64,000 nucleotides of DNA from a virus. Shown here in pieces: positions 3,943 through 36,239 of the stretch (its first letter is position 1; each line of letters opens with the position of its first letter). The notes under the pieces are model-generated. The model did no database searches. It was given only the letters and a program-made list of their open reading frames with translations, and was not told where the DNA came from. The DNA is taken from positions 143,261-207,260 of IMG/VR virus record IMGVR_UViG_3300046692_000091; one strand, 5' to 3'. Made by a program: the position numbers and the translations under genes.

Positions 3943-4377
3943 GTGAACGACCATACTAAAAGCAAAGGAGGGAGGCTTTTATTTTGTAACATGGTTACGT
4001 TAGTAACATCCTTATTCCCTACCAACAAGAGATCAGAAATGACCGCAAGTAATGTTGTAAAGATCCCGGTAATCTGCATGGGTGCAGAATCGAAATTCCT
4101 GACTAAGAAGACAGTTCAGCTCGAGAAGATCGTAAGCTGTCAATTGGTAGACGCATATGGCGTACAGATTAAGGATTATGTGGTAGCTAATGAAGCTCCT
4201 ATTCCTAATCTGTACCAACGGACCATCTATAAGAAAGGTCTGGCAACATCCGAAAAGATTGGGTCGCTATTTGTTGATCAAGTAACAGGGTCTTATACTC
4301 TGAAGCTGTTAGATCCATTGGCTCGACCAGCAGGTGTTGATATCCAACTTACCATCCAAACGAAGGAAGCCGCATGA
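3943..4377 (+). CDS. hypothetical protein; start uncertain (GTG 3943, ATG 3990 or ATG 4039); C-terminus ...KEAA
   Basis: ORF; stop overlaps next start (gccgcATGa). Confidence 0.45.
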   Translation: MNDHTKSKGGRLLFCNMVTLVTSLFPTNKRSEMTASNVVKIPVICMGAESKFLTKKTVQLEKIVSCQLVDAYGVQIKDYVVANEAPIPNLYQRTIYKKGLATSEKIGSLFVDQVTGSYTLKLLDPLARPAGVDIQLTIQTKEAA

Positions 4378-4811
4378 CTGAAGTGTCTATTCGCCGTATG
4401 CCTGTTGATGACAGTGCAGATAGCCGTCAAGCCATTATTCAGGTACCGATTCATAATACCGAATGCTACCAACTACCTGATCTGTTGGGCATTAACCCAA
4501 CAGCAATTCATTGGATCACTCCGGTCCAAGTCTCAGCACAATACTCAGGTATCCCAGCCCCAGGATTTACGTTTACCATTCGTCCTTACCGTGAGCAAGA
4601 AGGTGGTGGACAATGGGTAGATGTATTCTACCGGCTGAACAAGGTAGCCCTCATTTCGATCGGTGGACCACATGGCCGTATCGTCACGGGTAATGCACTC
4701 GATGAACAATTGGCTAAGTTGTTCCCTGAGATGGCAGAAGCAGTAGCACAAGTAACGGTGGCCTTCCTCGTGCAGTACGAGGTTCCTCATGAAGACACGT
4801 TTGCTACTTGA
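4374..4811 (+). CDS. hypothetical protein (145 aa)
   Basis: ORF; ATGA overlap with upstream gene. Confidence 0.55.
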   Translation: MTEVSIRRMPVDDSADSRQAIIQVPIHNTECYQLPDLLGINPTAIHWITPVQVSAQYSGIPAPGFTFTIRPYREQEGGGQWVDVFYRLNKVALISIGGPHGRIVTGNALDEQLAKLFPEMAEAVAQVTVAFLVQYEVPHEDTFAT

Positions 4812-5166
4812 TTATTCCAATCGCGGGGTAGTCTCAGGCAGATCTAATAGTTTGGTACATCACGGATCTCCTGATCTTCAGTTTACTGATGTGAATGTAC
4901 TGGCAGTTACGCAAGGGCCACAGACCTACGAATCTGAGTTAGGCTTCTATAAGGAGCCTCAACTTGAGTTCCCCAATCGGATAGTGTTTACTTTCTTCGA
5001 TAAGATTCAGAATCAATTGATTGCTGAGTTGGAAGTAGAACTCCAATTGAAGAGAATGCGTTGGATCAAGTCCGTGACTATGTCTCGGGTTACACCTTTC
5101 CAAGTTGAGATCGAACTGATTCAAGATCCAGCTATTCCCAGCCACTTATGGAGTATAGCGATTTGA
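4789..5166 (+). CDS. hypothetical protein (125 aa)
   Basis: ORF; overlaps neighbours by a few codons. Confidence 0.45.
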   Translation: MKTRLLLDYSNRGVVSGRSNSLVHHGSPDLQFTDVNVLAVTQGPQTYESELGFYKEPQLEFPNRIVFTFFDKIQNQLIAELEVELQLKRMRWIKSVTMSRVTPFQVEIELIQDPAIPSHLWSIAI

Positions 5167-5579
5167 TAGAATTGACGATAGCTTTATACGACAAACGGGA
5201 AGGTGATCTAGGAGATTGTGTTAGAGGCACCGAAGATAAAACTTTAGGGAAGCCATTTTGGATAACCCCAGGTCTAACATTCGAAACTGATGGGCAACCC
5301 ATCCATGCCTTTAAAACAGTTCCCACGCTACACTCTTACGTGGGTGTAAAGACTTTCCAGATCTGGGACAAGCGCAGTCAGTCCAAGCGAAAGCTTGTGG
5401 CAACGATTACGATAGACACCGCTACTAATAGCTACGTTGTGGCATTAGAAGACTACTATCAACGTCGTCGGTTGAATATGACTTTCCATGTACATGGGAA
5501 TTATGTTAGACCTCCTGCGCCTGTGGCATTCCATAACAAGACCCATCACGGTGATTGGGTTTTCGATAATACGATCTAA
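5148..5579 (+). CDS. hypothetical protein (143 aa)
   Basis: ORF in tandem array. Confidence 0.5.
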   Translation: MEYSDLIELTIALYDKREGDLGDCVRGTEDKTLGKPFWITPGLTFETDGQPIHAFKTVPTLHSYVGVKTFQIWDKRSQSKRKLVATITIDTATNSYVVALEDYYQRRRLNMTFHVHGNYVRPPAPVAFHNKTHHGDWVFDNTI

Positions 5580-5581
5580 TC

Positions 5582-5734
5582 ATGAAGACCAAACTCGAGA
5601 TGATCCACACTCTGCAACAACAGATGGAAACTCTCATTGAAGATAACCTGAAACTGGTTAAACAAATGGGTGCTCTAGTAAAGAATCAGACTGATCTAGA
5701 AAAGCGTCTTGCAAAGCTAGAGGAAAGGAAATAA
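5582..5734 (+). CDS. small coiled-coil protein (50 aa), not in ORF track
   Basis: ATG 5582 right after upstream stop; heptad-like MKTKLEMIHTLQQQMETLIEDNLKLVK...LEERK; fills the 150-nt gap exactly. Confidence 0.4.
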   Translation: MKTKLEMIHTLQQQMETLIEDNLKLVKQMGALVKNQTDLEKRLAKLEERK

Positions 5735-5736
5735 CC

Positions 5737-6201
5737 ATGCAACATCCGGTAGTAGCTAAACAAGTATTTTCGGATCTAGGTATCGTGCTCGATGGCCGTT
5801 CCTATTTCCCAGAAGATTCCCTCAATGCAACCTTGATCGAAAAGGTACTGCAGCGAGAAGCCCGTTGGTTGACCTATAACAAAGCTGGTGTGCTAGTTGG
5901 CTATAATGCCGAAGAGGATATCCAACTAGGTACTCGGGTTGCACTGAACCATAACGGTTCGGTAGATGACGCCGATATTTTCTGGTCACCTCTCTCTGGG
6001 GATAAAGATACCCCTTTGGTTCAGCTGTATGCTGAAGGCTTAGAAGAGACAACCAATCGCATGCAAGAAACCCGTGCGTACATGATGCAATGTATGGGTA
6101 GCCGTGGCTGGGTTCCTACCTTTGATGATGCTGGTGATCTGGTGGGGCTATGCCGTAACTTCATTATCGATGTAAGTCAAATCAATCGTCGTGCTGCTTA
6201 A
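5737..6201 (+). CDS. hypothetical protein (154 aa); ends ...RRAA
   Basis: SD 'gaggaaaggaaataaccATG'. Confidence 0.55.
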   Translation: MQHPVVAKQVFSDLGIVLDGRSYFPEDSLNATLIEKVLQREARWLTYNKAGVLVGYNAEEDIQLGTRVALNHNGSVDDADIFWSPLSGDKDTPLVQLYAEGLEETTNRMQETRAYMMQCMGSRGWVPTFDDAGDLVGLCRNFIIDVSQINRRAA

Positions 6202-6209
6202 GGATTTAA

Positions 6210-6656
6210 ATGAAAACGTTTTTGTATCTGTTACCGATCGAACATGATCAAGAAATCAAAGATCTACTGCGCATGGTTTCAAAGCCACCAACTGAGTGCT
6301 ACTCCGGACCTATGGTGATGGAGAGTAAGCTGATTGATCTGGTAGGTAAAGCCGAACGAGTAGAAACTGATCAAGGTCTGGATGCTCGTAACCTGGTCAT
6401 CCCCGAAGATAAGATTTGTGTTGGGATCATGGTCGAACATAGTGAGGGTGAAAATGTTCATCGGACCGAATGCGACATGTTTGCTGATCACCCAGAATTC
6501 GAACATCCGGTAGGTGGTCTTGCTAATCGAATGGACCGCGCTGCCGATGTATTGATCGATAGACTACACCGTCCAAACAAAACCACTTCGTATGCCTGGA
6601 CCTATAACGGCATGAGTGGTTACAAAGCTTTGCGGTTGTGTGGGCGTTACAGTTAA
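6210..6656 (+). CDS. hypothetical protein (148 aa)
   Basis: SD 'taaggatttaaATG'. Confidence 0.55.
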   Translation: MKTFLYLLPIEHDQEIKDLLRMVSKPPTECYSGPMVMESKLIDLVGKAERVETDQGLDARNLVIPEDKICVGIMVEHSEGENVHRTECDMFADHPEFEHPVGGLANRMDRAADVLIDRLHRPNKTTSYAWTYNGMSGYKALRLCGRYS

Positions 6657-6704
6657 TTCACTTCGGTGTATTAATATTCTGACCCATCAACTAGAGGCAA
6701 CGTG

Positions 6705-7717: not shown

Positions 7718-8458
7718 ATGCAAATCGAACAACGCGATACCAACATGACCCGCACTATGATGGACGCTTTCTTCAGTTGGTTCGCGGCAAACGACATCAG
7801 CCGTATCCACGTTATTGTGGACGGCACCCTTTTTGACAGTAAGGCTTTCGTAGACGATATGAATGGTCTGTATCAGATCCGTTTGTCTATTGGCGCTGCT
7901 GCAGTTCGTGGTTTCGGTTATCATGAACATGGCTTCTCGTACGGTTGCATGCGTCAAGGTGTTCATATCGACATGGACATTCCTTACGAAGCAGTGTTGG
8001 GCTTTGTTATCCCAACTGGTGAGAACACCGAAGTCATCTTCGAGGTTCCTAACCTGGAACGTCACCAAATGAAACTCGAACAACAGAAAGGTTTGTTGCC
8101 ACAACTGGGTAACTTCGCTTTCGTTGATCATGAAGGTAAAGCACTGCCGGATGAAATGGTTCATGAGCTGATGCGTCAACTCGTTCCATCCAATGCGGCC
8201 AAAGCAATCGAAGCCGCTCCTTATGCCGTACATGGCATCGCCCCAGAGACCCAGGATGAGGAAGGCAATCAACTGCCAACCATCACTGACCTGATGACCC
8301 GTAAACCTCTGGCGCAGCGTCCTGCTAAGCCCCAGCCTAAAGAAGCTCAAGCACCATTGTTGAACTTCGGCAATGTAAGTGGTACACAACTTCCAGCCCC
8401 AAAACCAACCCGTGCCATCCCTGCAGGTTGGTCCGTAATCCAAGGAGGTAAAGCATGA
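7718..8458 (+). CDS. sspB: SspB-like ClpXP adaptor homolog (stringent starvation protein B family)
   Basis: N-terminal ~110 aa aligns to E. coli SspB: MMDAFFSWFAANDISRIHVIVDGT vs LLRAFYEWLLDNQLTPHLVVDVT; IRLSIGAAAV vs IVLNIAPRAV; ...IPYEAVLGFV vs ...VPLAAVLAIY. Long low-complexity C-terminal tail, as in SspB. Confidence 0.6.
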   Translation: MQIEQRDTNMTRTMMDAFFSWFAANDISRIHVIVDGTLFDSKAFVDDMNGLYQIRLSIGAAAVRGFGYHEHGFSYGCMRQGVHIDMDIPYEAVLGFVIPTGENTEVIFEVPNLERHQMKLEQQKGLLPQLGNFAFVDHEGKALPDEMVHELMRQLVPSNAAKAIEAAPYAVHGIAPETQDEEGNQLPTITDLMTRKPLAQRPAKPQPKEAQAPLLNFGNVSGTQLPAPKPTRAIPAGWSVIQGGKA

Positions 8459-9168
8459 ACCCGTGTGACCAACTGGCGCATATCACGTGCCGTCGTAAAT
8501 CCCCGCGCCTGGCTGAGATCTTCAAGAAGCTGGATGGGGATTCGCATTTCCAGCAATTGGATATGTATGAACTGAATGACATGTTGTTCCGTGAACTAGC
8601 ATGGATGCCAAGTATGGTATCGATGGATTCTGAAGAACTCTATCAGGTCAACATCCGCACTATCCCGATCGCTCGTTTCGAAGATGGTGGTCTCCGTGTA
8701 CTGTCAATGGATACCCAAACCTTCTGGCCCAGTATGAATGATGTACAATCGGAACATGCTGTTCTGCAAGACATGGTTCATGCAGCTATGGTTAAGCATG
8801 TAATGTCCTGGGGCCTACGAATCAAAGAACCAGAACTGCGTATGCCGGTGTACTTCTCATTCGATCAACTCCGTCAGAATCTGGACGCTGTTGTTGTAGG
8901 GGCTGGTTTGCACACACTGACTGACGAACTCCGTCGTGTGCCACGTAAAACCAATCACCTCACTATTAATGTGGTGTTGACGATTACACCATCATTGATG
9001 TACCAGATCCGTGACCAGTCTCGTGCACAGATCTACATCTGCGACAACAACTTGCAACCTATCAATAACTTTGAAGGTGTTGTTGATAATGGGAACGAAA
9101 GTTTCTTTGACTTCTTGCGGAAACATAGTTACGACAGTAGCGTAATGTTAATGCCAGGTCTGGAGTAA
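8455..9168 (+). CDS. hypothetical protein (237 aa)
   Basis: ATGA overlap with sspB-like gene. Confidence 0.55.
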   Translation: MNPCDQLAHITCRRKSPRLAEIFKKLDGDSHFQQLDMYELNDMLFRELAWMPSMVSMDSEELYQVNIRTIPIARFEDGGLRVLSMDTQTFWPSMNDVQSEHAVLQDMVHAAMVKHVMSWGLRIKEPELRMPVYFSFDQLRQNLDAVVVGAGLHTLTDELRRVPRKTNHLTINVVLTITPSLMYQIRDQSRAQIYICDNNLQPINNFEGVVDNGNESFFDFLRKHSYDSSVMLMPGLE

Positions 9169-9171: not shown

Positions 9172-10554
9172 ATGCTTATTCAGGAAGTGTTAGGGTTATA
9201 CCACAATGCAATAGAGATGCTCAGTTCGGGTGACTCAACAGTCAAAGGTTTCATGACGTTGGGTGTCATGGGTCTGTTGGGTTATTTGGGGCGTACGATA
9301 CCCCAAACAATCTGGGCGTTCATCAAACGTAACACGATTTCATCGATGACTTTCACTCGCGCAGGTTCATATTCCATGGACATGCAGAACTACGTAGAGT
9401 TCATGCGTTGGTTCTCACAATCCAAGTGGGCTAAATATGATCGCAATCGACGTGTAACATTCGATCGGAATGACCCAGCTTTTGGACCAGGTACTGGCTT
9501 CCACTGGTTTGTTTGGAAAGGTCGTTACTTCTGGTTTAATGTTGTCCGTTTGAATTCCTCCGGTACCGATATCGAGAAAGAAGAATTCACACTGTATACA
9601 TTCGGTCGTACCACTAAACCATTCGAAGAACTGGTGGAAGAGTTCCGTATCAAGCCATGCAAGAAATCGATACGTATCTATGCCCCATCGAATGACGGTT
9701 GGAACTATCAGGGGCGACTACGGTTGGACGCTGATGAAACACTGATCATCGATCCAGAAGTAGAGAAAGAGTTCTTTGGTTCTATCGACTGGTATCTGGC
9801 AAACGAACCATGGTACCGTAAACGTGGATTGGCTTATAAACACACTGTCGTGTTGCATGGTCCACCTGGTACCGGTAAGACTTCGTTGATCAAACGTGCA
9901 GCCCGGAAGTACAAGCGGGATATTCACTTCCTGAACTTGGCTACCCATGGTCGTCAGTTGACTGATCTGATGGGTAAGTTGTCGGCTGGTGACATTCTGT
10001 GCATTGAAGACTTTGATGATGTCAAGTCGTTGCACCGTCGCACTGGTCCGAAGAAGATGGAAATCGGTGAACTGGACATCGGTTCCGATAAGAAACCAGA
10101 AGCGTTGTTGATGGACTGCGAGATTCAACTCAGTACCTTCCTCAACGTTCTGCAAGGCGTTGTAGAGCTCGATGATATCATTATCGTGCTGACTACTAAC
10201 CACCTGGAACTGATCGATCCAGCGGTCTACCGTCCGTCCCGTGTGAACAAACTGATCGAAGTGCTACCTCTGAAAGATCCGGAAGTTAAGCGCTATATCG
10301 ACACGATGTATGATAATCCTACTTACGATCGTAATGTAATGTACCCAGACGTTCCAGCTTCTACCCTGGCTGGTATCTTCATGGAGCACCCGAACGATCA
10401 CCTGGCTTTCATTGATAAGCTAGATTCGTTGGACGACAAATACGTCGCGGAGAACTATGCTCTACAACCAGAGCCCCCGCGCCCACCTTCCAAGAAAAAT
10501 AAGGACCCTTCTCCAATAGGAGGACAGGTTCTTGAAACCGTAGAGGCAGCGTAA
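9172..10554 (+). CDS. membrane-anchored AAA+ ATPase, Bcs1-like
   Basis: N-terminal TM helix GFMTLGVMGLLGYLG; Walker A HGPPGTGKTSLIK; Walker B ILCIEDFD; BCS1-like ...IHFLNL. Confidence 0.7.
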   Translation: MLIQEVLGLYHNAIEMLSSGDSTVKGFMTLGVMGLLGYLGRTIPQTIWAFIKRNTISSMTFTRAGSYSMDMQNYVEFMRWFSQSKWAKYDRNRRVTFDRNDPAFGPGTGFHWFVWKGRYFWFNVVRLNSSGTDIEKEEFTLYTFGRTTKPFEELVEEFRIKPCKKSIRIYAPSNDGWNYQGRLRLDADETLIIDPEVEKEFFGSIDWYLANEPWYRKRGLAYKHTVVLHGPPGTGKTSLIKRAARKYKRDIHFLNLATHGRQLTDLMGKLSAGDILCIEDFDDVKSLHRRTGPKKMEIGELDIGSDKKPEALLMDCEIQLSTFLNVLQGVVELDDIIIVLTTNHLELIDPAVYRPSRVNKLIEVLPLKDPEVKRYIDTMYDNPTYDRNVMYPDVPASTLAGIFMEHPNDHLAFIDKLDSLDDKYVAENYALQPEPPRPPSKKNKDPSPIGGQVLETVEAA

Positions 10555-10555
10555 C

Positions 10556-10897
10556 ATGGATAATTTTGCACGTCACAACTTCAACGTCTACCCGGAAGAG
10601 ATGACCTACCACAAAGATCGCTTCTTGCAAAATGATGCTGGTTGTGCGGTAGTTACATTCGTTGGGGCTTTTCATGGCGATACCATTCTGACGAATGAAG
10701 TCGAAGTGATTGCACGTGGTGTGGAACTGGGTAAGATCGCTCGGTTCCTGGTTCGTTCAGGTGATCAGGAAACCCATCTCGACATGGATCTGACAACCTG
10801 CCGTTATGAAGCAGAAAGCAATATCAAAACCAAACTGGGTGACGTCGTACTGGTGTTCACCGCGCACTACCCAACCGAAGAAAAGGAAGCTGCATGA
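10556..10897 (+). CDS. hypothetical protein (113 aa); ends KEAA
   Basis: ORF; stop overlaps next ATG. Confidence 0.5.
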   Translation: MDNFARHNFNVYPEEMTYHKDRFLQNDAGCAVVTFVGAFHGDTILTNEVEVIARGVELGKIARFLVRSGDQETHLDMDLTTCRYEAESNIKTKLGDVVLVFTAHYPTEEKEAA

Positions 10898-11832
10898 TTC
10901 GCGTTCGTTATGGTTACAGTCATAGTTCTTCGACGATGCCTGTTGAAATGAAACACATGCCGGGTGGTGAACTCCACCCAACGCTTGACACGGATCACTT
11001 GAATGCCAGCGAGTACACCATCTACGCCGACACCAAGAGCTCGGATGATCTGTTTGGTATTGCTCTGGTAGCTAACGCTATCCGCCGTAATGCCGAAGTA
11101 CCAATCAAAGCACTCTCTCTGGTAATTGGTTATGTGCCTTATGCACGCCAAGACCGTATTGTTGGTGGTGAAGGTGAGGCACTATCGATCGAAGTGATGG
11201 CCGACTTCATCAACATGCTGAACTTCGATGCAGTGATCATTGCAGATCCCCACAGCGATACAACTCCGGCTTTGATCCGTAATGCTAAGGTCATGTCCCA
11301 GGAAATGATCTTCAGTGAATTCCTGATCCGCGAAACGGCAGACTTCGATACCCGTGAGATTGCTTACGTGCCATCTGAGTACATCCTGGTTTCCCCAGAT
11401 GCTGGTGCGATCAAGAAGACCGAGAAGCTGGCTACTAAGTTCGGCTTTAAAGGTGTAGCGTACGCTAACAAAACACGCAATACCCGTACCGGTAAGATCA
11501 CTGGTTGTACTGTGGACCGATTGGTTTTGGATGGTGAACCAGCAATGATAAGTCAACTACAAGGCGAGAAGCTTTTAGTAGTTGACGATATCTGTGATGG
11601 TGGTTATACATTTATCCAATTGGCCGAAGTGTTGAATACCTACAGCCCAGCTAGTTTGGAACTGTACGTCACTCACGGTATCTTCTCTAAAGGTCTCGAG
11701 CCGTTGTATAAAGCGGGTTACACTCGTGTTGTTACTACCAATGCTTATGGCATGGAAGGTAGCACTGAGCTGTATGCGCTTGAGAAAGAAGAAAAGAAAG
11801 CACTCAAATTCGTAAAAATCGATATTGCCTAA
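10894..11832 (+). CDS. ribose-phosphate pyrophosphokinase family protein (Prs-like; alternatively ADPR pyrophosphokinase Adps of the NARP1 pathway)
   Basis: Prs signatures GYVPYARQDR and PRPP-binding loop LLVVDDICDGGYT; 312 aa. Confidence 0.7.
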   Translation: MIRVRYGYSHSSSTMPVEMKHMPGGELHPTLDTDHLNASEYTIYADTKSSDDLFGIALVANAIRRNAEVPIKALSLVIGYVPYARQDRIVGGEGEALSIEVMADFINMLNFDAVIIADPHSDTTPALIRNAKVMSQEMIFSEFLIRETADFDTREIAYVPSEYILVSPDAGAIKKTEKLATKFGFKGVAYANKTRNTRTGKITGCTVDRLVLDGEPAMISQLQGEKLLVVDDICDGGYTFIQLAEVLNTYSPASLELYVTHGIFSKGLEPLYKAGYTRVVTTNAYGMEGSTELYALEKEEKKALKFVKIDIA

Positions 11833-11841
11833 GGATTCAAA

Positions 11842-13656
11842 ATGTCAATGTTTCTCAACGCTGGTACCGCTACTGACTTCTACAAACCTGGCCACGGTCC
11901 ACTGTATCCAGAAGGCACTACCCGTAAGTACTCCAACTTCACCCCACGCTCGGCGAAGAACTTCCTGCGTTCCAAAAGCTGCTCGGCTTACTATGATAAC
12001 AAAGTAGTAAACTTCGGCCTGTATGGTACCTGGCAAGAACTGGTTGACCTGTGGGATAAAACCTTCTTCCAAGTTTCGAAGAAGAAAGCAATCGCCTTCA
12101 TCAAACGTCGTTTTGATAATGGCACTGGTCCTGATGTTATCACAACTGCTCAAATCGCTGCACTCCACGATGTCGGCTTCCTGCCGGTAACTGTGTTGTC
12201 CATCGAAGAAGGTAACCGTGTCGATATCGGCATTCCTCTGTGGGTTATCTATAACTCCGAAGAATACCCAGAACACTACTGGCTGGTTAACTACCTGGAA
12301 ACCATCACCAGTTCGTACAACTGGCAGTCGATCACCAACGCAACCATCGCCTACGAATATCGTCGTCTGTGCGAGATCTGGGCTGCTAAGACCTGTGATA
12401 ACAATGACCACGTTAAAATCCAAGGTCATGACTTCTCGTTCCGTGGCATGCCTGGTCCAGAAGCTGCTGGTCGTTCTAACGCGGGCCACTTGGCTTCGTT
12501 CTGGGGTACTGATACTATCCCGGCAATCGATTACATCGAACGCCTGTATAACGCCAACTCTGATAAAGAAGTCCTGGGTGTATCGGTTACTGCTACTGAA
12601 CACGCCGTTGCTACTGCGAATATCCTGTCTCGCCTGAAGCACAAGATCCGTGCTCTGCCTGCCGACACTGTTATCTCCGGTGAAATGATCGATCTGCTCA
12701 AACTCGAATGCGAGCGTGAGTACATCCTGGAAATCATCCTGGTAAAAGTGAAGAAGGGTATCATCTCCCTGGTTTGCGATTCCTTCGACTTCTGGAGTGT
12801 TATCGAACACGTACTGCCTTCGCTCCGTAAGGAAATCGAAAGCCGTATCGTGAACGAACTCGGTCTGGCTAAAGTAGTTGTACGTCCTGACTCGGGTAAT
12901 CCGGTACACGTGATCTGTGGTTTCAAAATCATGGGTGAGTTCGCTGACATTGCTGCATTCTCGAAGCATGTCTACGACAACGGTACTTTCGAACTGGGTA
13001 TGTACGAAGCTGTGAAGATTGGTGATGTTTACCATGAACTGCAGAATACTACTTGGACTAGCTGCTCTATCGAAGACTTCCTGGGTCGTGAGATGAAGCG
13101 GGTAGAAGCAATCGGTGCGATCGAATCCCTGTGGGAATCTTTCGGTGGTCACACTAACACCAAAGGCTATAAAGTACTGAACTCGTACATCGGTCTGATC
13201 TATGGTGACTCGATCACTGTTGAACGTACCGAACAGATCTTCCAACGTCTGGCTGATAAAGGCTTCGCTTCGTCGAACGTTGTTCTGGGTATCGGTTCGT
13301 TTACTTATCAGTACAACACTCGTGATACCTTCGGCATGGCCATGAAGGCAACTGCGTGTGAAGTGCAGGATGAACTGATCGAGCTGTACAAAGATCCGAA
13401 GACCGCTGCATCCAAGAAGTCCGCTAAAGGCTTCCTGCGTGTACTGAAAGACGAGAACGGCAAATATACACTCGAACAAGAAGTGGAAATGGATTGGAAA
13501 GATCTGTTCTACGGTTCGGGTGAACTGAAGCCTCTGTTCCACAACGGTAAGTTCCAGCGTGCTGAACATTTCGGTGATGTACGTAGTCGCATTGACTCTA
13601 CTTTCGTAGTAGCTAATGACGATGACGGTTTCGACCCAGTCGAAGAAGCGGCATAA
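11842..13656 (+). CDS. nicotinamide phosphoribosyltransferase family protein (NAMPT/NadV-like, or Namat-like), 604 aa
   Basis: N-terminal GTATDFYKPGH resembles NAMPT DSYKxxH; type II PRTase-like length; ends VEEAA. Confidence 0.65.
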   Translation: MSMFLNAGTATDFYKPGHGPLYPEGTTRKYSNFTPRSAKNFLRSKSCSAYYDNKVVNFGLYGTWQELVDLWDKTFFQVSKKKAIAFIKRRFDNGTGPDVITTAQIAALHDVGFLPVTVLSIEEGNRVDIGIPLWVIYNSEEYPEHYWLVNYLETITSSYNWQSITNATIAYEYRRLCEIWAAKTCDNNDHVKIQGHDFSFRGMPGPEAAGRSNAGHLASFWGTDTIPAIDYIERLYNANSDKEVLGVSVTATEHAVATANILSRLKHKIRALPADTVISGEMIDLLKLECEREYILEIILVKVKKGIISLVCDSFDFWSVIEHVLPSLRKEIESRIVNELGLAKVVVRPDSGNPVHVICGFKIMGEFADIAAFSKHVYDNGTFELGMYEAVKIGDVYHELQNTTWTSCSIEDFLGREMKRVEAIGAIESLWESFGGHTNTKGYKVLNSYIGLIYGDSITVERTEQIFQRLADKGFASSNVVLGIGSFTYQYNTRDTFGMAMKATACEVQDELIELYKDPKTAASKKSAKGFLRVLKDENGKYTLEQEVEMDWKDLFYGSGELKPLFHNGKFQRAEHFGDVRSRIDSTFVVANDDDGFDPVEEAA

Positions 13657-13662: not shown

Positions 13663-13700
13663 GGGGACCTTCGGGTCCCCATCCTATTTTCTTTTTTGTC
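13663..13700 (+). terminator. hairpin + T-rich tract
   Basis: ggggaccttcgggtcccc + atcctattttcttttttg. Confidence 0.6.
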
Positions 13701-14349: not shown

Positions 14350-15774
14350 ATGAAAGAATATTTGTCCATGCAGCAAGAAGTACTGGAACGAGGCGTGCCG
14401 AAAGGTGACCGCACTGGTACTGGTACTATTTCTTGCCCTGGTGTTAGTCGTGTATATGACATCAGCGATAATCGGTTGGCTGCAACGTCTACCAAAAAGA
14501 TTCACATCAAGACAGGTCAGGTTGAAGAAGACTGGATGTTGTCAGGTGATACCCGACTGAAGTTCCTGAAAGACAACAACTGCAACATCTGGGACGAATG
14601 GGTTCTGAAAGGTACCGGTATCTATCGTAATCGTACGGTCAAAGAAATGCGTCGAGTTTATACTCGTAACCATTTCGGTTGGTCTAAACCAGTCGTTCTA
14701 GATATCGGTTGTGACCCAGAGAACACAGAAGTCTGGAATAAGGTTGCAGAAACAGAGGACTTCGAAGTCTGGGCATGGGACGTAACTAAAGGCATCGGCA
14801 TTAAACCACATCATGGCATTCGGGATAAGTCCAAGGATAGTCTGAATTGGATGAACTGGCAAAACCCAGAAGATCCTATTTGGCTTCAGTTCTACTCTGC
14901 TCTGGGTATCTCTGATCTGGAAGTAATGGACGGAGAACTCGGTAAGGTATACGGGGCAATGTTCCGTAGTATCGAAGACACCCGTATCGATAGTGGTGGG
15001 GGTGTTAATGAGAAAGAATGGACAGACCGTGGATTCTCTTGGGAAGGTATGTTAGGTGATGGCCGATCGGTGTATACGCGTAAGATCGATCAGGTTGCTA
15101 AACTACTGTATGATCTGGAGCATAACCCAGATTCTCGTCGTTTGATTCTGTGTCCATGGAACCCAGCATATGTAGATGAACAAGCATTGCCTCCTTGCCA
15201 TTCATTCATCCAGTTCTGGACGCGTGAGATGACTTCCGAGCAACGTTACCATGTCTATTGTAAGCAGTATGACCGTGAGCAAAAAGAGTTGCTTGACGAC
15301 ATTGCTAAACGTAGTCGTGCCGACATTTATACTGCGCATGCTCCATATCCGTTGTCATGCTTTGCTGAAGTCGACGACCGTGGTACTTTCTTCGATCATT
15401 ATAAGCTGCATGCTTATCTAGATGAGCTTGATGTTCCACGTCGTGCTTTGACATGCATTGTTTATATGCGGTCTAACGATGTGTTCTTGGGTGCACCGTA
15501 TAACCTCACGTTCTATTCTTCACTAACGCACAAGCTGGCTCACCAGTTTAACATGTACGGTGAGAAACTGGTTCACTTCGTAGGTGATGCACATATCTAC
15601 CAGAACCATTTGGATCAAGTTGCCGAACAACAAGCTCGTACACCTGACCGTGATATGCCTCGACTGAAGATCAATGTTCCGAAAGGTACTTCGATTCTCG
15701 ACATGACGTTCCAAGATCTGGAAGTGATCGGTTATAACCCACAGCCTGCTATTGAAGCACCTGTAGCTGTTTAA
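14350..15774 (+). CDS. thyA: thymidylate synthase ThyA, 474 aa with large insertions
   Basis: DRTGTGT, DPDSRRLILCPWNP, catalytic LPPCHSFIQFW, C-terminal GDAHIYQNHLDQ; three inserted segments relative to ~264-aa ThyA. Confidence 0.85.
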   Translation: MKEYLSMQQEVLERGVPKGDRTGTGTISCPGVSRVYDISDNRLAATSTKKIHIKTGQVEEDWMLSGDTRLKFLKDNNCNIWDEWVLKGTGIYRNRTVKEMRRVYTRNHFGWSKPVVLDIGCDPENTEVWNKVAETEDFEVWAWDVTKGIGIKPHHGIRDKSKDSLNWMNWQNPEDPIWLQFYSALGISDLEVMDGELGKVYGAMFRSIEDTRIDSGGGVNEKEWTDRGFSWEGMLGDGRSVYTRKIDQVAKLLYDLEHNPDSRRLILCPWNPAYVDEQALPPCHSFIQFWTREMTSEQRYHVYCKQYDREQKELLDDIAKRSRADIYTAHAPYPLSCFAEVDDRGTFFDHYKLHAYLDELDVPRRALTCIVYMRSNDVFLGAPYNLTFYSSLTHKLAHQFNMYGEKLVHFVGDAHIYQNHLDQVAEQQARTPDRDMPRLKINVPKGTSILDMTFQDLEVIGYNPQPAIEAPVAV

Positions 15775-15820: not shown

Positions 15821-16078
15821 ATGCAACAGAATATAATTGTAGCAGTAAGCTATCCGGTTGTAAGTAAAGACAGCGTAAAGTTTGTTCATTCAATCAACAA
15901 TGATGAGGGTACGATTACCTTCGTCTCTGTCGATACTCCTGATAAAGCACAACTTTTTGGTGGCGAAGTAGGGGCGGTTGCAGAGTTCTTAAACTACCAT
16001 GTTAAACCTAATCTGGAAAATACATGGAAGTTCAATTCTGTTGACATAAACAAAATCAAACCAGAGGAGGCAGCATGA
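15821..16078 (+). CDS. hypothetical protein (85 aa); ends PEEAA
   Basis: ORF after terminator; gaggaggcagcATGa junction. Confidence 0.5.
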   Translation: MQQNIIVAVSYPVVSKDSVKFVHSINNDEGTITFVSVDTPDKAQLFGGEVGAVAEFLNYHVKPNLENTWKFNSVDINKIKPEEAA

Positions 16079-19568: not shown

Positions 19569-20045
19569 GTGACAGATCCAAGACAGCAAGAAATAGATTG
19601 CATCGAACTCATGCGTGACCGGTTGATCAAAGAACCACATAACTGGCGTGGTACTGTGTTGGAAGAATCCAGTTGGTACAAGCTGCTAGTGGGTGAACTG
19701 GATCTTACTGAGTTCACAGTAGCATTTCGCTACTTGCTCAGTTATTGGGATAAACGTCGACTTAATGTTGGCGGCATCATGAAAATGGAAACCTATATTC
19801 GCTTGTGGAATTGCCTATCGGATGACGCTAAACAACAATGGCCTGATATCGATATCAAGGTGCATCAGTTTGTCGGTCGTCCAGAATGTGCGATCCATGT
19901 CCTGCAGGATATAATGCGTGGCCCTACTGACATCAGTACTTACCTGGATCAATTTCTGCGCGATGATGTCGGTTCTACCTTCCGCTGGGTACAAGGTATC
20001 CAAAGAGCAAAAGTAACACGCCAACTCAATAAGGAAGCAGCATGA
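19569..20045 (+). CDS. hypothetical protein (158 aa); ends NKEAA
   Basis: ORF; ATGA overlap downstream. Confidence 0.5.
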   Translation: MTDPRQQEIDCIELMRDRLIKEPHNWRGTVLEESSWYKLLVGELDLTEFTVAFRYLLSYWDKRRLNVGGIMKMETYIRLWNCLSDDAKQQWPDIDIKVHQFVGRPECAIHVLQDIMRGPTDISTYLDQFLRDDVGSTFRWVQGIQRAKVTRQLNKEAA

Positions 20046-20443: not shown

Positions 20444-20715
20444 TGGCTAAGGCAGTCCGACATAAAAGTGGTGTGTGGATGCAACCAGGTACAGAAGGCT
20501 GGGAAAAGTATCATAACCCACCTGTAATAATGAAAGTACCTAATGCTCCACTCTCACTCGATCAGTACATGGACGAGCTTGATAAGAAGTGGCGTAAAGC
20601 CGAAGGGCGTGTTCCTGTTAAAGAACTGGATGAACGGGGACTGATGCTAGAAGGCCGTATTCCATGGGACCCTGTTCGACTGAAACAACTCACCGAAGAA
20701 CGGTTGGCTGCATGA
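20443..20715 (+). CDS. hypothetical protein (90 aa); ends ERLAA
   Basis: ORF. Confidence 0.5.
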   Translation: MAKAVRHKSGVWMQPGTEGWEKYHNPPVIMKVPNAPLSLDQYMDELDKKWRKAEGRVPVKELDERGLMLEGRIPWDPVRLKQLTEERLAA

Positions 20716-21072: not shown

Positions 21073-21333
21073 ATGTCTGCTGACAAACAAACGCGTGCAT
21101 CAAACCGTTACCACGATTTCCGTATCATCCGTAATCAGTTGTCAATCTGGAAGTTTCACAATCCGACTGGCGGCTGGTTGTCGGCACAGAAGCCATCAGG
21201 CTGGCGTAAACGGAAAGCGATGAACTGTAGTTGTCATACCTGTCGTGGTTGGGCTAAAGATGCGCGTCAATTTCGTTACGATTACCAGTTGGAGAAATCC
21301 GGTATGAAACGTGAAGAATACGAAGGGATCTAA
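21073..21333 (+). CDS. hypothetical Cys/His-rich protein (86 aa)
   Basis: CSCHTCRGW segment. Confidence 0.45.
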   Translation: MSADKQTRASNRYHDFRIIRNQLSIWKFHNPTGGWLSAQKPSGWRKRKAMNCSCHTCRGWAKDARQFRYDYQLEKSGMKREEYEGI

Positions 21334-21488
21334 TGCGTACATTCATGAGTGTTAAAGGCTTTCGGCGTTGGTCTCGTATGGGACTGGCTGGACGAATCAA
21401 ACAGCTCATTAAAGACGACATGGGTAAAATGAGTTGGTTTCGACCAACTCGACAGAAACGCTGGGTTCCTGGTAAGGAGGAAACATGA
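21333..21488 (+). CDS. small basic protein (51 aa), not in ORF track
   Basis: taATG overlap; followed by further tiny ATGA-linked ORFs. Confidence 0.3.
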   Translation: MRTFMSVKGFRRWSRMGLAGRIKQLIKDDMGKMSWFRPTRQKRWVPGKEET

Positions 21489-29091: not shown

Positions 29092-29359
29092 TCTGACTAA
29101 GTGCGATACGTTCCATGAGGGTGATGTGCTTCTCACTTTCAAAATTGGTGACGATGAAACTAAAGCCAAGATGATCCCAGTAATGGCGAGCTTGGGTCTG
29201 TACCAATGGGCTTACTCCAAACGTGAAGACGATGGCTGTGAGCAATACTTGTTCGTAGCTGATTACGAACAGCGTAAGGTTGATCATCTGCGTAGCTGCA
29301 TGAATTCGTTGTCTTTGCCGGAAAGCTTTAAAGCAAAGCTCTCGGAACTGGCTTCATGA
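29084..29359 (+). CDS. hypothetical protein (91 aa)
   Basis: ORF. Confidence 0.5.
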   Translation: MFDLTKCDTFHEGDVLLTFKIGDDETKAKMIPVMASLGLYQWAYSKREDDGCEQYLFVADYEQRKVDHLRSCMNSLSLPESFKAKLSELAS

Positions 29360-29694: not shown

Positions 29695-29839
29695 AGAAGT
29701 CTTAGCTAGTGTGGCGGGGGGTGCTTTAGTGCAGTCCCGTCATCTACCTGAAACCAAACTTGCGCTGGAACCTACCCAACAGACGGATCGATTGGAACTC
29801 AAACCAAATCCAGAATATCTGGTGGACGTGTACATATGA
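29657..29839 (+). CDS. hypothetical small protein (60 aa)
   Basis: Internal ATG; overlaps previous gene by ~38 nt. Confidence 0.3.
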   Translation: MTKELFPENLSFEEVLASVAGGALVQSRHLPETKLALEPTQQTDRLELKPNPEYLVDVYI

Positions 29840-30114
29840 GCAGCAAACAAATGACCCTGATCCGTGGGGTTATGGTAAACGATCTGTTGGAAATCAATCA
29901 ACAGGTTCAAGATGGTATCGATAGCCAAGAGTTAGGCTTTACCATCGATCAAGCTGTTGCTGTTAAACAAGCAATCCAAGACACTACTGTCGGTGTACTG
30001 CATGTGATCGACAAGCATGCGCAAATCTTTCCTGCTGGTCATGATCTCGGCTCTAATCCTTTCTTTAATGAATCGGAACTAGCCGAAGCTTACATCGAAG
30101 CAATCAACTCTTAA
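29836..30114 (+). CDS. small acidic protein ending ...YIEAINS (INS-tail family)
   Basis: ATGA overlap; C-terminal aromatic-x3-[IV]NS shared with 7 others. Confidence 0.5.
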   Translation: MSSKQMTLIRGVMVNDLLEINQQVQDGIDSQELGFTIDQAVAVKQAIQDTTVGVLHVIDKHAQIFPAGHDLGSNPFFNESELAEAYIEAINS

Positions 30115-30122: not shown

Positions 30123-30371
30123 ATGGATACCGAAGAACTCGTTGAATCTGTTGCAGAGGCTAATGACCTCAAACAAAAAGAAATTCTGGATGGCATGATC
30201 GGTATTCGTATCGAAGCAGAAGCTATGCCCCAAGTAGAAGGCATTCATCACGCTATCTCTGAAACTGCTCGTCTGTATGAAGGCGCATTCGTTCTGGAAG
30301 TAACTGCCAATGGTTGTGCTACCGAATACATGGGTACCGCAGATCGTTACCTGGAGTACGTTAACTCGTGA
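30123..30371 (+). CDS. small acidic protein ending ...YLEYVNS (INS-tail family)
   Basis: SD 'taaggaacaacATG'. Confidence 0.5.
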   Translation: MDTEELVESVAEANDLKQKEILDGMIGIRIEAEAMPQVEGIHHAISETARLYEGAFVLEVTANGCATEYMGTADRYLEYVNS

Positions 30372-30674: not shown

Positions 30675-30908
30675 ATGACTGACAAAATCGTAGAAGCCAA
30701 TGTTGAATCCCGTGATGCCCTGATCAGTATTATCAATGAAGTCCGTAGCACCGCCAATGGCGAAGTCACCATCGCTGCCGCTGTTGATGTTGCAATCACC
30801 GGCACCGTAATTGCTGTTGAACAAGCTGTCCTGTCCGGTGGCATGGGTTCGGTAGTTGACCTGAACGAAGCCCTGGGTAAGAACTGGGCCGAAGCCGTTA
30901 ACTCCTAA
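30675..30908 (+). CDS. small acidic protein ending ...WAEAVNS (INS-tail family)
   Basis: SD 'aggaagcaccgcaATG'. Confidence 0.5.
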   Translation: MTDKIVEANVESRDALISIINEVRSTANGEVTIAAAVDVAITGTVIAVEQAVLSGGMGSVVDLNEALGKNWAEAVNS

Positions 30909-31192
30909 TGGCGCTGTCCCTAATCGACTCAGGGTTGTTCAAGCTGTTGGACCGTGATCGTGACCAACTGGTGTGCGATGAGTTCAAAGATGCACGTGAC
31001 GAGGCCGGTAATCTAACCGTCGCCTCCGTCTCTGCAGCTATGGATAAACTGTACGACAGAACAGTCGGACAAACGTTGTACGCTTTAGATAGCGTAGGCT
31101 TCTTCACGATTGCCGATACTAAAGCTAGAACAATTACAGATATCGTTTCTCAGTCAATGGGCGACGAATGGTTCGCTGCAATCAACTCGTAA
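30908..31192 (+). CDS. small acidic protein ending ...WFAAINS (INS-tail family)
   Basis: taATG overlap. Confidence 0.5.
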   Translation: MALSLIDSGLFKLLDRDRDQLVCDEFKDARDEAGNLTVASVSAAMDKLYDRTVGQTLYALDSVGFFTIADTKARTITDIVSQSMGDEWFAAINS

Positions 31193-33213: not shown

Positions 33214-33672
33214 ATGTCTCCCGCTCTTGTTCTCTCCCTCGCTGCTATTGTAATCGTTCTACTCGTTGCCTACTATGCGTGGGTTGGTCTTATCAATGCT
33301 ACCGGTGGTGGCTTGAAAGAGTGGGTAGATGCAGACTTTCCTGATATCGTGCATACGCCGAAAGCGACATGGTTGACTGGGTTTAAATATCGCCAACATG
33401 GCTTGTCTGTTAAAGCTAAATTGGATGTGCCGATCTGTCTAGAATATGATCAGCATGTACATCTTGGTCGGTTCTCTGTGGTTGACACCTTTGCACGTTC
33501 CGCCAGTTCATTAGACGGGGTTGATCAGAACCATGAAAAGGATCTGGTTGCCTATGACTTTGGTATGGATCTGGAACTCATGACTGGTGGTCAAATCGCT
33601 ATGCGCGTAGTCTATAACCGCATCAGTATTACCGACATCGAACCAGTCATCAAGGAGTCTGCCTGTGAGTGA
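33214..33672 (+). CDS. membrane-anchored protein (152 aa)
   Basis: N-terminal TM LVLSLAAIVIVLLVAYYAWVGL; SD 'aaaggaaaactgcaATG'. Confidence 0.5.
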   Translation: MSPALVLSLAAIVIVLLVAYYAWVGLINATGGGLKEWVDADFPDIVHTPKATWLTGFKYRQHGLSVKAKLDVPICLEYDQHVHLGRFSVVDTFARSASSLDGVDQNHEKDLVAYDFGMDLELMTGGQIAMRVVYNRISITDIEPVIKESACE

Positions 33673-34018
33673 GTACCCAAAGGCAACCAAGGCCGAGCTT
33701 GAAAAAGCATATGCCTTGGTTAATGAATTAGAGAAAGAACTCGTAGCCGATTCACAAATGGCACGTGGAATTTGGTTTGCTGATATTCAAGCGAACGTCC
33801 TAGATCAGAACCCCCCAAAGTTTGACAAAGGGTCAACGATGACCCAAGCTTTCCGCATGGGGATTGATCGTGGTGTGGAATGTGTATTGAGCGCAGTCGA
33901 TTCTCGGGGCATCCTGATGATCGATGGCAATGATCGAATGCTCAACGTAGACATCACTAGCGATGGTCCGGATATGTTACCCCTGGTAGATCTGTGGACT
34001 ACCTACATTAATAGCTGA
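33665..34018 (+). CDS. protein ending ...WTTYINS (INS-tail family)
   Basis: GTGA overlap; C-terminal INS. Confidence 0.5.
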   Translation: MSEYPKATKAELEKAYALVNELEKELVADSQMARGIWFADIQANVLDQNPPKFDKGSTMTQAFRMGIDRGVECVLSAVDSRGILMIDGNDRMLNVDITSDGPDMLPLVDLWTTYINS

Positions 34019-34025
34019 GGTCTCG

Positions 34026-34361
34026 ATGTATCAAACCACCAATGATGAACGTTGGGCAAAAGCCACGACTCGTGTTATCACTGATGCTGAGATGAATAAT
34101 GCCAGTATCCGTATTGGTCAGAACATGATGTTCCAAGGGCTCAATCAGGACCTTAAGGAATTGAATCAGCTGGTCGATATGGACGAGGATAAAATCAAGT
34201 GTGTCCAGCTAGGTATGTGCATGGTTTTCAATTACATTGAAGACGCTCAGTTAGAACTGATCAGTAAAGAAGATCAGGGTTCACTGAATCCTACTCATGA
34301 ATCACATGACTATCATCTTGGTTTTGCATGGGATAGTTACATCGCTTCTATTAATAGCTAG
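34026..34361 (+). CDS. protein ending ...YIASINS (INS-tail family)
   Basis: SD 'tgaggtctcgATG'. Confidence 0.5.
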   Translation: MYQTTNDERWAKATTRVITDAEMNNASIRIGQNMMFQGLNQDLKELNQLVDMDEDKIKCVQLGMCMVFNYIEDAQLELISKEDQGSLNPTHESHDYHLGFAWDSYIASINS

Positions 34362-34423
34362 GCTCTGTATGATCTTATGTATCTATGTTTGTAGATATCA
34401 TCCTGATCACTAAGGAGTCTTAA

Positions 34424-34963: not shown

Positions 34964-34969
34964 TATATC

Positions 34970-35002
34970 GCCTATCCTTCGGGATAGGCTTTATGTTGTT
35001 TT
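34970..35002 (+). terminator. hairpin + CTTTATG; exact 33-nt repeat of 48805-48837
   Basis: gcctatccttcgggataggctttatgttgttt. Confidence 0.55.
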
Positions 35003-35007
35003 CTTTT

Positions 35008-35037
35008 ATTCAAACTTTTTAAACGCCTATATTACAT
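35008..35037 (+). promoter_or_regulatory. promoter-like motif actttttaaacgcCTATATTAC
   Basis: Same layout as 21717 copy. Confidence 0.5.
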
Positions 35038-35069
35038 TCTTGGATTCACTAACTATAGGAAAAGGCCCG

Positions 35070-35453
35070 ATGACTAGTGTAAAGACCGATCGCGAACGCG
35101 TAGAAAAACTGTCAATGTTCAGCATAGATCTCACCCAGAAGATCCGTTCACTAATCGATGTCTTAGGACCATACGCACCTCTGGCACAAGCGTTGTCCGA
35201 ATACCCTGATGCCTTAATCGTAAAAGCACAAGTAAAATTGCGTGGCTCAAGTAATAGTCTCTATCAGGTCTCTATCCTAGATAGTGGTCAACTGCAAGAA
35301 GTGTTCGTCACCGACAATGACGTATCTCGCTATATTGCACTCCGCTTTAACAAAGCGGTATTTGGTACGAGCGACATATTCGATCGTGCCTCAATCTCCG
35401 TTGATGGTGTGACTATTGATCCTGAATCTCAGGGTCTAGCCGACATCGACTGA
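35070..35453 (+). CDS. hypothetical protein (127 aa)
   Basis: SD 'aggaaaaggcccgATG' downstream of promoter motif. Confidence 0.45.
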   Translation: MTSVKTDRERVEKLSMFSIDLTQKIRSLIDVLGPYAPLAQALSEYPDALIVKAQVKLRGSSNSLYQVSILDSGQLQEVFVTDNDVSRYIALRFNKAVFGTSDIFDRASISVDGVTIDPESQGLADID

Positions 35454-35457
35454 GAAC

Positions 35458-35490
35458 AGTAACCCTTCGGGGTTACATATTTTTCTTTGT
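35458..35490 (+). terminator. hairpin + T-rich tract
   Basis: gtaacccttcggggttac + atatttttctttg. Confidence 0.55.
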
Positions 35491-35511
35491 GTGTTTTAAG
35501 GAATTTGCAGT

Positions 35512-35946
35512 ATGACAGTTGCACCAGAAATGGTTCCATTCGTTTATTGCGGTGGTACGTTAGCTGTATTCATCATAGGTACATTACTGTTCTTACTTAT
35601 CCGCGGCATGATGGATCAGCGTGAGAATGAAAAGCCCGGCGAAAACAAACGTACTCGTTACATGATGCGTTTCGTTTATGATGCAGTTAACGTTAGGAGA
35701 ATCGGCTATTACTCTACGAATACGATGAAGCCTTATATACAGGCGTATCCAAAGTATGCGGCGGTAATAACTGGTTATCCGGCGGCGAAGTCTGTGTTTG
35801 ATGACCATGCTAAACTAAGCCTTGGTCAAGTCAAAGAACAATTTGCTTATCTGTACCCTACGTGCCGAATCTATCTAATGGAAGAACGCACTTACTTCGG
35901 TATTAAATCCTGGTATGACCTAACGAGCGTGGATCTGGTCCCATGA
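35512..35946 (+). CDS. membrane protein (144 aa)
   Basis: N-terminal TM VYCGGTLAVFIIGTLLFLLI. Confidence 0.5.
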   Translation: MTVAPEMVPFVYCGGTLAVFIIGTLLFLLIRGMMDQRENEKPGENKRTRYMMRFVYDAVNVRRIGYYSTNTMKPYIQAYPKYAAVITGYPAAKSVFDDHAKLSLGQVKEQFAYLYPTCRIYLMEERTYFGIKSWYDLTSVDLVP

Positions 35947-36239
35947 GTGAATATGTAATCGAAATCATCCGTGGTCGTGATCACATTTATCTGTCTCGTA
36001 AAGAGAGCGGTAAAGCCAATGTCACACCGCAAGAACGCAACGCTATTACTTTTGAATCATCAACTGCAGCTAAGCTAGTGATTGATGCATTGATGGAAAA
36101 GCCCACCTCAGACATGCGTAAGCTGTTGAAGGTTCAAGAAGACTGGAATCGTCCAGTCCAACTGTTGGCCCGTAAGCGGTTGGGTAATAGTCACATGACT
36201 ACCAACGCCCGTATGTATCTATTTAAGGAAGCCGCATAA
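35943..36239 (+). CDS. hypothetical protein (98 aa); ends FKEAA
   Basis: ATGA overlap. Confidence 0.5.
   Translation: MSEYVIEIIRGRDHIYLSRKESGKANVTPQERNAITFESSTAAKLVIDALMEKPTSDMRKLLKVQEDWNRPVQLLARKRLGNSHMTTNARMYLFKEAA

Follow-up and report, generated by a model that had tools for sequence, protein, structure and literature searches.

Ala-Ala gene ends and coupled gene junctions in a jumbo phage related to Psa21

The stretch of viral DNA considered here, called the window throughout, comprises 64,000 nucleotides (nt) of IMG/VR record IMGVR_UViG_3300046692_000091 (positions 143,261 to 207,260) and belongs to a jumbo phage related to Pseudomonas phage Psa21 (genus Tepukevirus, 305 kb). With a codon-usage model, 124 open reading frames (ORFs) were called in the window; about 110 of them lie on the plus strand between 1 and 52 kb, and a minus-strand block with a tRNA cluster follows. 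Ten plus-strand ORFs encode proteins that end in Ala-Ala, and another, lying among them, encodes an SspB homolog (Table 1). DNA identity to Psa21 is about 77% across the region that encodes nicotinamide/nicotinate phosphoribosyltransferase (NAMPT), a PRPP synthetase and an AAA ATPase, and relatives closer than Psa21 are found only as IMG/VR contigs, with 92% (L006, L252) or 86% (L005) protein identity in the AAA ATPase. Psa21 encodes PhuZ, and the window's clade is therefore of the nucleus-forming type.

Table 1. Ala-Ala-tailed genes of the window and the gene of the SspB homolog (SD, Shine-Dalgarno sequence).
Positions	Strand	Product	C-terminus	Gene end and next start
3943-4377	+		TKEAA	AAG GAA GCC GCA TGA; overlaps ATG of 4374-4811 (ATGA junction)
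5737-6201	+		NRRAA	GCT GCT TAA; next start 6210, whose SD (TAAGGA) opens with the stop codon
7718-8458	+	SspB homolog: N-terminal SspB substrate-binding domain, long linker, putative XB-like C-terminus	IQGGKA (not Ala-Ala)	
9172-10554	+	BCS1-like AAA+ ATPase (Pfam BCS1_N and AAA)	TVEAA	GAG GCA GCG TAA c ATG; next start 10556
10556-10897	+	113 residues	EKEAA	AAGGAAGCTGCATGA; overlaps start of PRPP-synthetase-like gene at 10894
11842-13656	+	NAMPT (Pfam NAPRTase)	VEEAA	GAA GAA GCG GCA TAA; uncoupled
15821-16078	+	85 residues	PEEAA	GAGGAGGCAGCATGA; overlaps start at 16075
19569-20045	+	158 residues	NKEAA	AAGGAAGCAGCATGA; overlaps start at 20042
20042-20443	+	133 residues	LEKAA	GCA GCA TAA TG; one-base overlap with start at 20443
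20443-20715	+	90 residues	ERLAA	GCT GCA TGA; overlaps ATG at 20712
35943-36239	+	98 residues	FKEAA	AAGGAAGCCGCATAATG; one-base overlap with start at 36239

Ala-Ala tails and the junctions they occupy

All ten tails were read through to the stop codon. Given an Ala content of 7.0% and an internal Ala-Ala frequency of 0.60% in the 124-gene set, 0.74 such tails are expected, within an overall range of 0.6-0.75 (Poisson p about 7e-9), in agreement with a first-pass annotation of this DNA, which had listed the same ten proteins and put the expectation below one. The dipeptide occurs ten times at the last two positions versus zero to two times at each of the next 14 offsets; Ala at the last position is enriched 2.4-fold and Glu at -3 2.5-fold. 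A run of 31 consecutive genes (3.9 to 20.7 kb) contains nine of the ten (permutation p 0.00045). Among 2388 gene ends from IMG/VR contigs picked regardless of Ala-Ala, 0.9% end in Ala-Ala, about twice the frequency at internal offsets, and in the part of the same sample with a GC content of 0.38-0.52 the rate is 0.64%, which makes the window's 8-9% an outlier.

Eight of the tails occur at coupled junctions, where the next start lies within -4 to +4 of the stop: five are ATGA overlaps (stops at 4377, 10897, 16078, 20045 and 20715), two are TAATG overlaps (20443 and 36239) and one reads TAAcATG (10554). Their consensus is RAG-GAR-GCN-GCA-TRA, in which the Lys and Glu codons form the SD of the next gene, the two Ala codons form the spacer, and the stop follows. 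In seven of the eight an SD (AAGGAA, GAGGAGG, GAGG or GGAG) is found within the tail, 4-12 nt 5' of the downstream start, that at 20715 being weak; SD-to-start spacing varies from 4 to 11 nt across the Ala-Ala junctions, and half of the tails are followed by TAA, half by TGA. Some details given earlier thus need amendment. The usual form is GAR-GCN-GCA-TRA and not GAR-GMN-GCA-TRA, and the last Ala codon, said to be always GCA, is GCA in eight cases, GCT in 5737-6201 and GCG in 9172-10554. The tails said to embed an SD for the next gene do exist, those at coupled junctions numbering eight where "several" had been reported, and the two singled out as having no overlap, at 5737 and 11842, are indeed uncoupled.

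The association with coupling is pronounced, Ala-Ala being found at 8 of 47 coupled junctions versus 2 of 77 other gene ends (odds ratio 7.7, p 0.006). The check that the first-pass annotation had proposed, of whether the enrichment survives once SD-embedding junctions are removed, leaves a marginal excess: the two uncoupled tails, EEAA of NAMPT and RRAA of 5737-6201, amount to 2/77 (p 0.078), or 2/62 under a stricter classifier (p 0.045), so that most of the enrichment goes with the junctions. Embedding of an SD together with codon usage was rejected as a sufficient cause, since only 0.4-0.6% of the in-frame internal SD-like cores in window and Psa21 genes are directly followed by two Ala codons, a null against which 8/47 has a p of 3e-10.

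GGARGCNGC occurs six times in the window, five times at Ala-Ala junctions, and at gene starts GCNGCATG is seen in ATGA overlaps only. GCNGC never occurs in the window's non-coding spacers, which are A/T/C-rich, so it is not a better spacer as such and was rejected as a generally better spacer for a ribosome-binding site (RBS); it is what this phage uses where the spacer is translated. The reading of GCNGC as a motif acting on the DNA itself (a restriction or methylation site, for instance) was also rejected, as there is no genome-wide enrichment: within genes GCNGC is observed 169 times versus 190 +/- 8 after synonymous resampling, and it is unremarkable in the related contig L001.

Accidental origins of the pattern are effectively refuted. 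That it was chosen after the fact, and in one window, is what can be said for chance, and the two p values given above, against composition and against the SD-conditioned null, oppose it. Paralogy as the source of the repeated tails was rejected, no similarity being detectable among the ten proteins (blastp 1e-3), and mis-calling is countered by the orthologs that nine of the ten ORFs have in related phages and by coding scores that are positive for all ten; a practically negligible probability attaches to chance, paralogy and mis-calling together. Foreign origin was rejected because the tailed genes are like their neighbours in GC, GC3 and Ala content.

Two other kinds of tail were observed beside these. 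The end of 21333-21488 (21474-21488) reads AAG GAG GAA ACA TGA (KEET), with a full SD and the form of an ATGA junction; no ORF of at least 40 residues starts at 21485, and an unlisted small ORF may begin there. Lys-rich tails (RKK, ESK, EKK and KKK, ending AAA TGA, at 17010, 19272, 43771 and 46150) are the second commonest form at the window's ATGA junctions and the usual form in AT-rich phages.

Turnover among relatives and recurrence across phages

The Ala-Ala tails are located in length-variable, poorly conserved C-terminal extensions and turn over rapidly between close relatives. In a sister contig Ala-Ala is found in 4 of 9 comparable tails (those at 9172, 10556, 11842 and 35943), the others ending in KESQ, RRNI, EVPA, KAT or LAT, and in Psa21 it is found in none of nine orthologous tails. 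At 4377 the sister tail is KESQ (AAGGAAAGCCAATGA): the nucleotides of the junction are kept (AAGGAAAGCC) and the frame is shifted, giving Ser-Gln. At 10897 the 15-mer AAGGAAGCTGCATGA is identical, synonymous site included, in the window and in three other distinct lineages (L005, L006 and L002-L004, the last of which gave identical results and were counted as one), the Psa21 counterpart being KEAV. This identity and the frame shift at 4377 point to a constraint on the RNA and not on the peptide.

Orthologs of 5737-6201 end in RRNI, DRNV, ERNL or RRFAE, and Ala-Ala was therefore gained in the window lineage. The ATPase gene 9172-10554 ends in EAA in the sister contig; L005 has SAA, with the SD after the stop, and other relatives have LSE or PAV; NAMPT ends in EEAA, KEAA, FEVA or VVEA among the relatives; and 15821-16078 corresponds to AEVPA in the sister and DVQA in Psa21. 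No ortholog of 19569-20045 was found in the sister contig, where 20042-20443 ends in DKAT, 20443-20715 in ERLAT (GCG ACA TGA), and 35943-36239 has an ATGA junction and a synonymous change that leaves FKEAA intact. Several tails were gained by in-place point changes, such as ACA/GCA and AAT ATC to GCT GCT.

Two of these ends have features of their own. Distant relatives of the 3943-4377 product carry a Cys-rich extension of 17 residues and end in AAA or AVA; the orthologs in L001 (5582-5974), L002 (4594-4974) and L005 (4192-4626) run about 17 residues longer, through the start of the next gene, with a Cys-rich stretch (e.g. KCQNCPSAECQSMKAAA) that overlaps the downstream ORF in another frame, and the window and sister versions terminate at ATGA. 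The NAMPT gene is followed by a terminator hairpin, GGGGACC-TTCG-GGTCCCC, at about 13663-13680, and its C-terminus (about 13609-13656) reads ...VVANDDDGFDPVEEAA. The proteobacterial ssrA tag is AANDENYALAA, to which the layout ANDD..[F] ... AA of this end is loosely alike; the spacing varies among relatives (VNDGFEVA in Psa21), and the likeness may be coincidence.

Outside this clade the same ends recur, and the observation is genuine, with a somewhat wider reach than the first-pass annotation had supposed (Table 2). Ala-Ala outnumbers every other tail at the ATGA junction-like sites of lambda, Medea1, E220 and the window. Seven of the eight Ala-Ala ORFs of lambda are annotated coding sequences (B, bet, ea10, ral, ninB, ninC and ninG), and seven of the nine Ala-Ala tails of Pseudomonas phage Medea1 are ...GCATGA junctions. 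Across 300 kb of Psa21 the nine ORFs ending in Ala-Ala represent a 3-fold excess (p 0.003); the KEAA/ATGA type is missing from them, and among their products are the major capsid protein, an RNA polymerase subunit and UvsX. The sequence AAGGAAGCNGCATGA is present in at least 118 IMG/VR contigs; the comparison of such patterns rests on the fraction in junction configuration among the matches listed, which for KEAA-stop/ATG is 87/118 versus 19/120 for a Val-Val control pattern. In the contigs that bear KEAA, other gene ends, coupled or not, are 4-5-fold enriched in Ala-Ala.

Table 2. Ala-Ala at gene ends in the window and in other phages.
Phage	ORFs ending in Ala-Ala	Ala-Ala at ATGA junction-like sites
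Window	10/124	5/36
Lambda	8/65	4/30
Medea1	9/75	7/43
E220	1/36	3/46
Kremar	0/71	0/20
Phabio (50-kb region)	1/104	0/26
Psa21	9/399	0/83

The Ala-Ala junction idiom belongs to certain phage lineages. P. syringae is the host of Medea1, Kremar and Psa21 alike; the three differ completely, so the idiom does not follow the host, and a host-specific cause was rejected. A second nucleotide-level route to Ala-Ala tails was seen in lambda, where in ea10 and in an unannotated ORF (29118-29285) GCCGCC is the 5' arm of a terminator stem (GCCGCCTGA..GGCGGTTTT).

The SspB homolog and the surrounding genes

As a single sequence, the product of 7718-8458 has no Pfam or PDB match. The profile of its family (A3) matches SspB structures 1ZSZ, 1OU8, 1OX9 and 8ET3 over residues 14-96 (E 4e-7 to 4e-5), four of its homologs carry PF04386, and homologs either carry that domain or are named stringent starvation protein B. 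By this profile and these annotations, the homology to SspB, already proposed in the first-pass annotation, is judged genuine. The family C-terminus, ...GRP(H/K)L(T/R)(V/L)IQGGKA, resembles the E. coli XB peptide RGGRPALRVVK, and that of the window copy (...PAGWSVIQGGKA) is less like it than the family consensus is. Its tail (CAAGGAGGTAAAGCATGA) also holds the SD and start of 8455-9168, such that the end of the gene (8441-8458, CAA GGA GGT AAA GCA TGA) appears to be dual, a putative XB-like ClpX-docking end as well as the SD and ATGA of the next gene; GGK(A/Q/R) is conserved across the family. With this family, tblastn found six phage records, with lambda and Medea1 not among them, and Psa21 and Phabio, both relatives of the window phage, have an SspB homolog and no Ala-Ala junctions. 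Judging by these searches, Ala-Ala tails and SspB do not co-occur across phages.

Directly 3' of the SspB homolog, 9172-13656 on the plus strand is a conserved block encoding the BCS1-like AAA+ ATPase (labelled 'cell division protein FtsH' in the Psa21 annotation), the 113-residue ORF product, the PRPP-synthetase-like protein and NAMPT, an NAD salvage module. The thymidylate synthase encoded at 14350-15774 on the same strand has 474 residues and is matched in two stretches by a Pfam profile of 266 positions, which implies an insertion of well over 100 residues that is kept in relatives (466-486 residues).

Seven small proteins of 77-117 residues end in (I/V)NS, encoded on the plus strand at 29836-30114, 30123-30371, 30675-30908, 30908-31192, 33665-34018, 34026-34361 and 40383-40724. 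These tails are as improbable as those in Ala-Ala (seven observed versus 0.24 expected). The seven proteins do not match one another in blastp at 1e-3; once aligned, they form a paralog family of very high divergence whose C-termini share the motif [AG]-[DE]-x-[WY]-x-x-x-(I/V)-N-S. Psa21 has nine tails in NS. On the minus strand, seven tRNA genes (Thr, Ser, two Leu, Trp and two Asn) lie at 58336-63814 with ORFs between them, two of which, 58638-59369 and 61416-62135, are paralogs with 34% identity; the matching region of Psa21 has HNH endonucleases between its tRNAs. No phage tmRNA was found within the window.

Origin of the tails and comparison with known systems

With slightly more confidence than doubt, the Ala-Ala tails are taken to be the protein read-out of a lineage-specific gene-junction idiom for translational coupling. 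Because eight of the ten carry the RBS of the next gene and lambda has the same habit, they probably reflect the building of junctions and not a programmed degradation signal. In the dense plus-strand block, the last four codons of the upstream gene would double as the ribosome-binding region of the next: Lys and Glu codons (AAG GAR, GAG GAG) would supply the SD, two GCN codons would fill the spacer, and the stop would overlap or abut the next ATG (ATGA, TAATG or TAAcATG), with a putative dependence of downstream translation on that of the upstream gene. Ala may be the least harmful filler where the spacer must code, since U-rich codons would give hydrophobic tails, C-rich codons Pro, ACN codons Thr, a residue that C-termini tend to avoid, and G-rich codons a rival SD. 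Most tails would be kept from acting as strong ClpX tags by the charged residues that the SD encodes just before them, and the two uncoupled cases, NAMPT and 5737-6201, fit the weaker, about 2-4-fold, terminal Ala-Ala excess at uncoupled ends of many phages. The explanation draws on the junction anatomy, the association of Ala-Ala with coupling, the confinement of the idiom to translated spacers, its recurrence in unrelated phages, lambda included, and the rapid turnover of the tails.

A number of observations sit badly with this explanation. The SD-conditioned null leaves the choice of Ala unexplained by the RBS alone, and, against the filler being harmless, Ala-Ala-COOH is itself the core ClpX recognition element. 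Contigs sampled regardless of Ala-Ala have it at 1 of 362 coupled ends at GC 0.38-0.52 and at none of 26 KE-X-X-stop junctions, so that a universal property of coupled junctions was rejected; the lack of Ala-Ala junctions in Psa21, Phabio and Kremar makes the idiom a lineage habit. Uncoupled ends are about 4-fold enriched in Psa21 and in the KEAA-bearing contigs, which a pure junction model does not predict. In L005 NAMPT and the AAA ATPase keep Ala-Ala with synonymous changes and no embedded SD, and outgroup comparison gives at least three gains in the window lineage versus none in the sister, which looks directional.

The directional gains, and the clustering of nine tailed genes around the SspB gene, speak for a reading in which the tails are ssrA-like ClpX signals, such that the co-located proteins would be turned over by host ClpXP or would saturate it, perhaps with the help of the phage SspB-like adaptor, as the first-pass annotation had suggested. 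Recognition of the ssrA kind requires a terminal Ala-Ala, which also predominated among the strongest tags of the unbiased DEtox screen (PMC10862746), the tails lie in variable extensions and are likely accessible, and bacterial proteomes show a mild bias against Ala at C-termini (PMC7246954), so that no generic trend accounts for the excess. The SspB homolog itself is genuine, with a putative XB-like C-terminus, and the tail of 20443-20715, already noticed as ...RLAA, is the only one to match the strong-tag consensus x-[LAR]-L-A-A. In the same screen, however, Ala-Ala was not sufficient; strong tags were of the form [LFYW][LAR]LAA, neutral or positive and moderately hydrophobic (PMC10862746), whereas Glu is at -3 in seven of the ten tails and all ten are hydrophilic at -5 to -3, with mean hydropathies from -4.2 to 0.0 versus +1.4 for YALAA. 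The excess is concentrated at coupled junctions, no common SspB-binding motif is visible 5' of the ten tails, and Ala-Ala is kept in only 4/9 sister and 0/9 Psa21 tails, both phages having the SspB gene. Lambda and Medea1 share the excess and are not among the SspB-family records, Psa21 and Phabio have SspB and no Ala-Ala junctions, and the Ala-Ala tails of Psa21 include those of proteins that need stability (the major capsid protein, the RNA polymerase subunit and UvsX). Programmed ClpXP turnover is thus the weaker explanation when set beside the junction idiom; weakly supported by these sequence comparisons, it is rather unlikely. A broader version, in which Ala-Ala tails would be a widespread, unremarked property of some phage proteomes, lambda's included, and junction building would also set ClpXP susceptibility, is likewise considered improbable; here ClpX would engage at least a subset of tails (e.g. 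-ERLAA, -NRRAA), either as a timer for the turnover of proteins expressed together or by way of decoys that load ClpXP.

Selection might instead act on termination and restart, Ala-Ala (with tRNA-Ala in the P and E sites and a small, helix-prone nascent end) being favoured for fast, clean termination and efficient re-initiation. Bjornsson et al. reportedly found in 1996 that the last two residues modulate termination. Such modulation, with effects of Pro and Thr, is cited in PMC7246954, and the tails agree with it in being fixed directly before the stop in all three geometries while SD-start spacing varies (4 to 11 nt), and in showing enrichment at the last two positions and not at neighbouring offsets. 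The even split between TAA and TGA speaks against it, as do the P. syringae phages, which share a host and differ at ATGA junction-like sites (16% in Medea1 versus 0% in Kremar and Psa21), which argues against a factor of the host translation machinery; termination tuning, too, has a low probability. A very improbable origin is that the short junction sequences (AAGGAAGCNGCATGA) are recombination linkers, boundaries that promote module exchange in mosaic phages and spread with the modules. In its favour, four junctions of the window and many unrelated contigs share one 15-mer, mosaic lambdoid phages show the idiom most strongly, and the gene content of the Ala-Ala cluster is variable between close relatives, but similarity ends after about 12-15 nt, the third position of the first Ala codon differs between junctions, the tailed genes are compositionally native, and several tails arose by in-place point changes.

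If the junction explanation is true, it urges caution, for what the next gene requires of the nucleotides can then produce a degron-like C-terminal motif, and statistics on C-termini have to be stratified by junction type. Some phages (lambda, Medea1 and that of the window) end 8-12% of their genes in Ala-Ala and close relatives or same-host phages do not, and no description of this, or of an Ala-Ala junction idiom, was found in the literature searched. Were the tails read by ClpXP, they would link operon architecture to protein lifetime in phages and would be candidate cargoes for the unexplained phage SspB homologs.

Among known systems, the ssrA tag, or ClpX C-motif-1 degron (...YALAA-COOH), shares with the window tails the terminal Ala-Ala with its free carboxylate, and ERLAA additionally has Leu at -3 and Arg at -4. 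The tails differ from it in mostly having Glu at -3 with a hydrophilic upstream part, and in being genome-encoded at junctions and not added by tmRNA. Phage SspB homologs have been reported before, as gp039 of Erwinia phage RAY (cytoplasmic) and gp18 of Pseudomonas phage pf16, and 7718-8458 likewise combines an SspB domain with a putative XB-like C-terminus, in a jumbo phage clade of the nucleus-forming type; its presence does not track the frequency of Ala-Ala tails across phages.

The closest parallels are found in overlapping, translationally coupled genes, whose anatomy eight of the ten tails share. The preference for NNA-UGA last codons, which stems from overlapping starts, is established in bacteria, and the NNA-TGA constraint and the SD-encoding Lys, Glu, Gly and Arg codons of the window are as described there (PMC7246954); the difference lies in the spacer codons, which are Ala-Ala far above what codon usage or SD embedding predicts. 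Lambda differs in being a temperate siphovirus of E. coli, in not being among the records matched by the window's SspB family, and in having some Ala-Ala tails whose GCCGCC codons form terminator stems, which is not so in the window. Its junctions, and those of lambdoid phages (bet/exo, ninB/ninC, ninC/ninD and ninG/ninH), have the same ...GCNGCATGA as the window, and the share of Ala-Ala tails is alike, at about 10-12% of genes.

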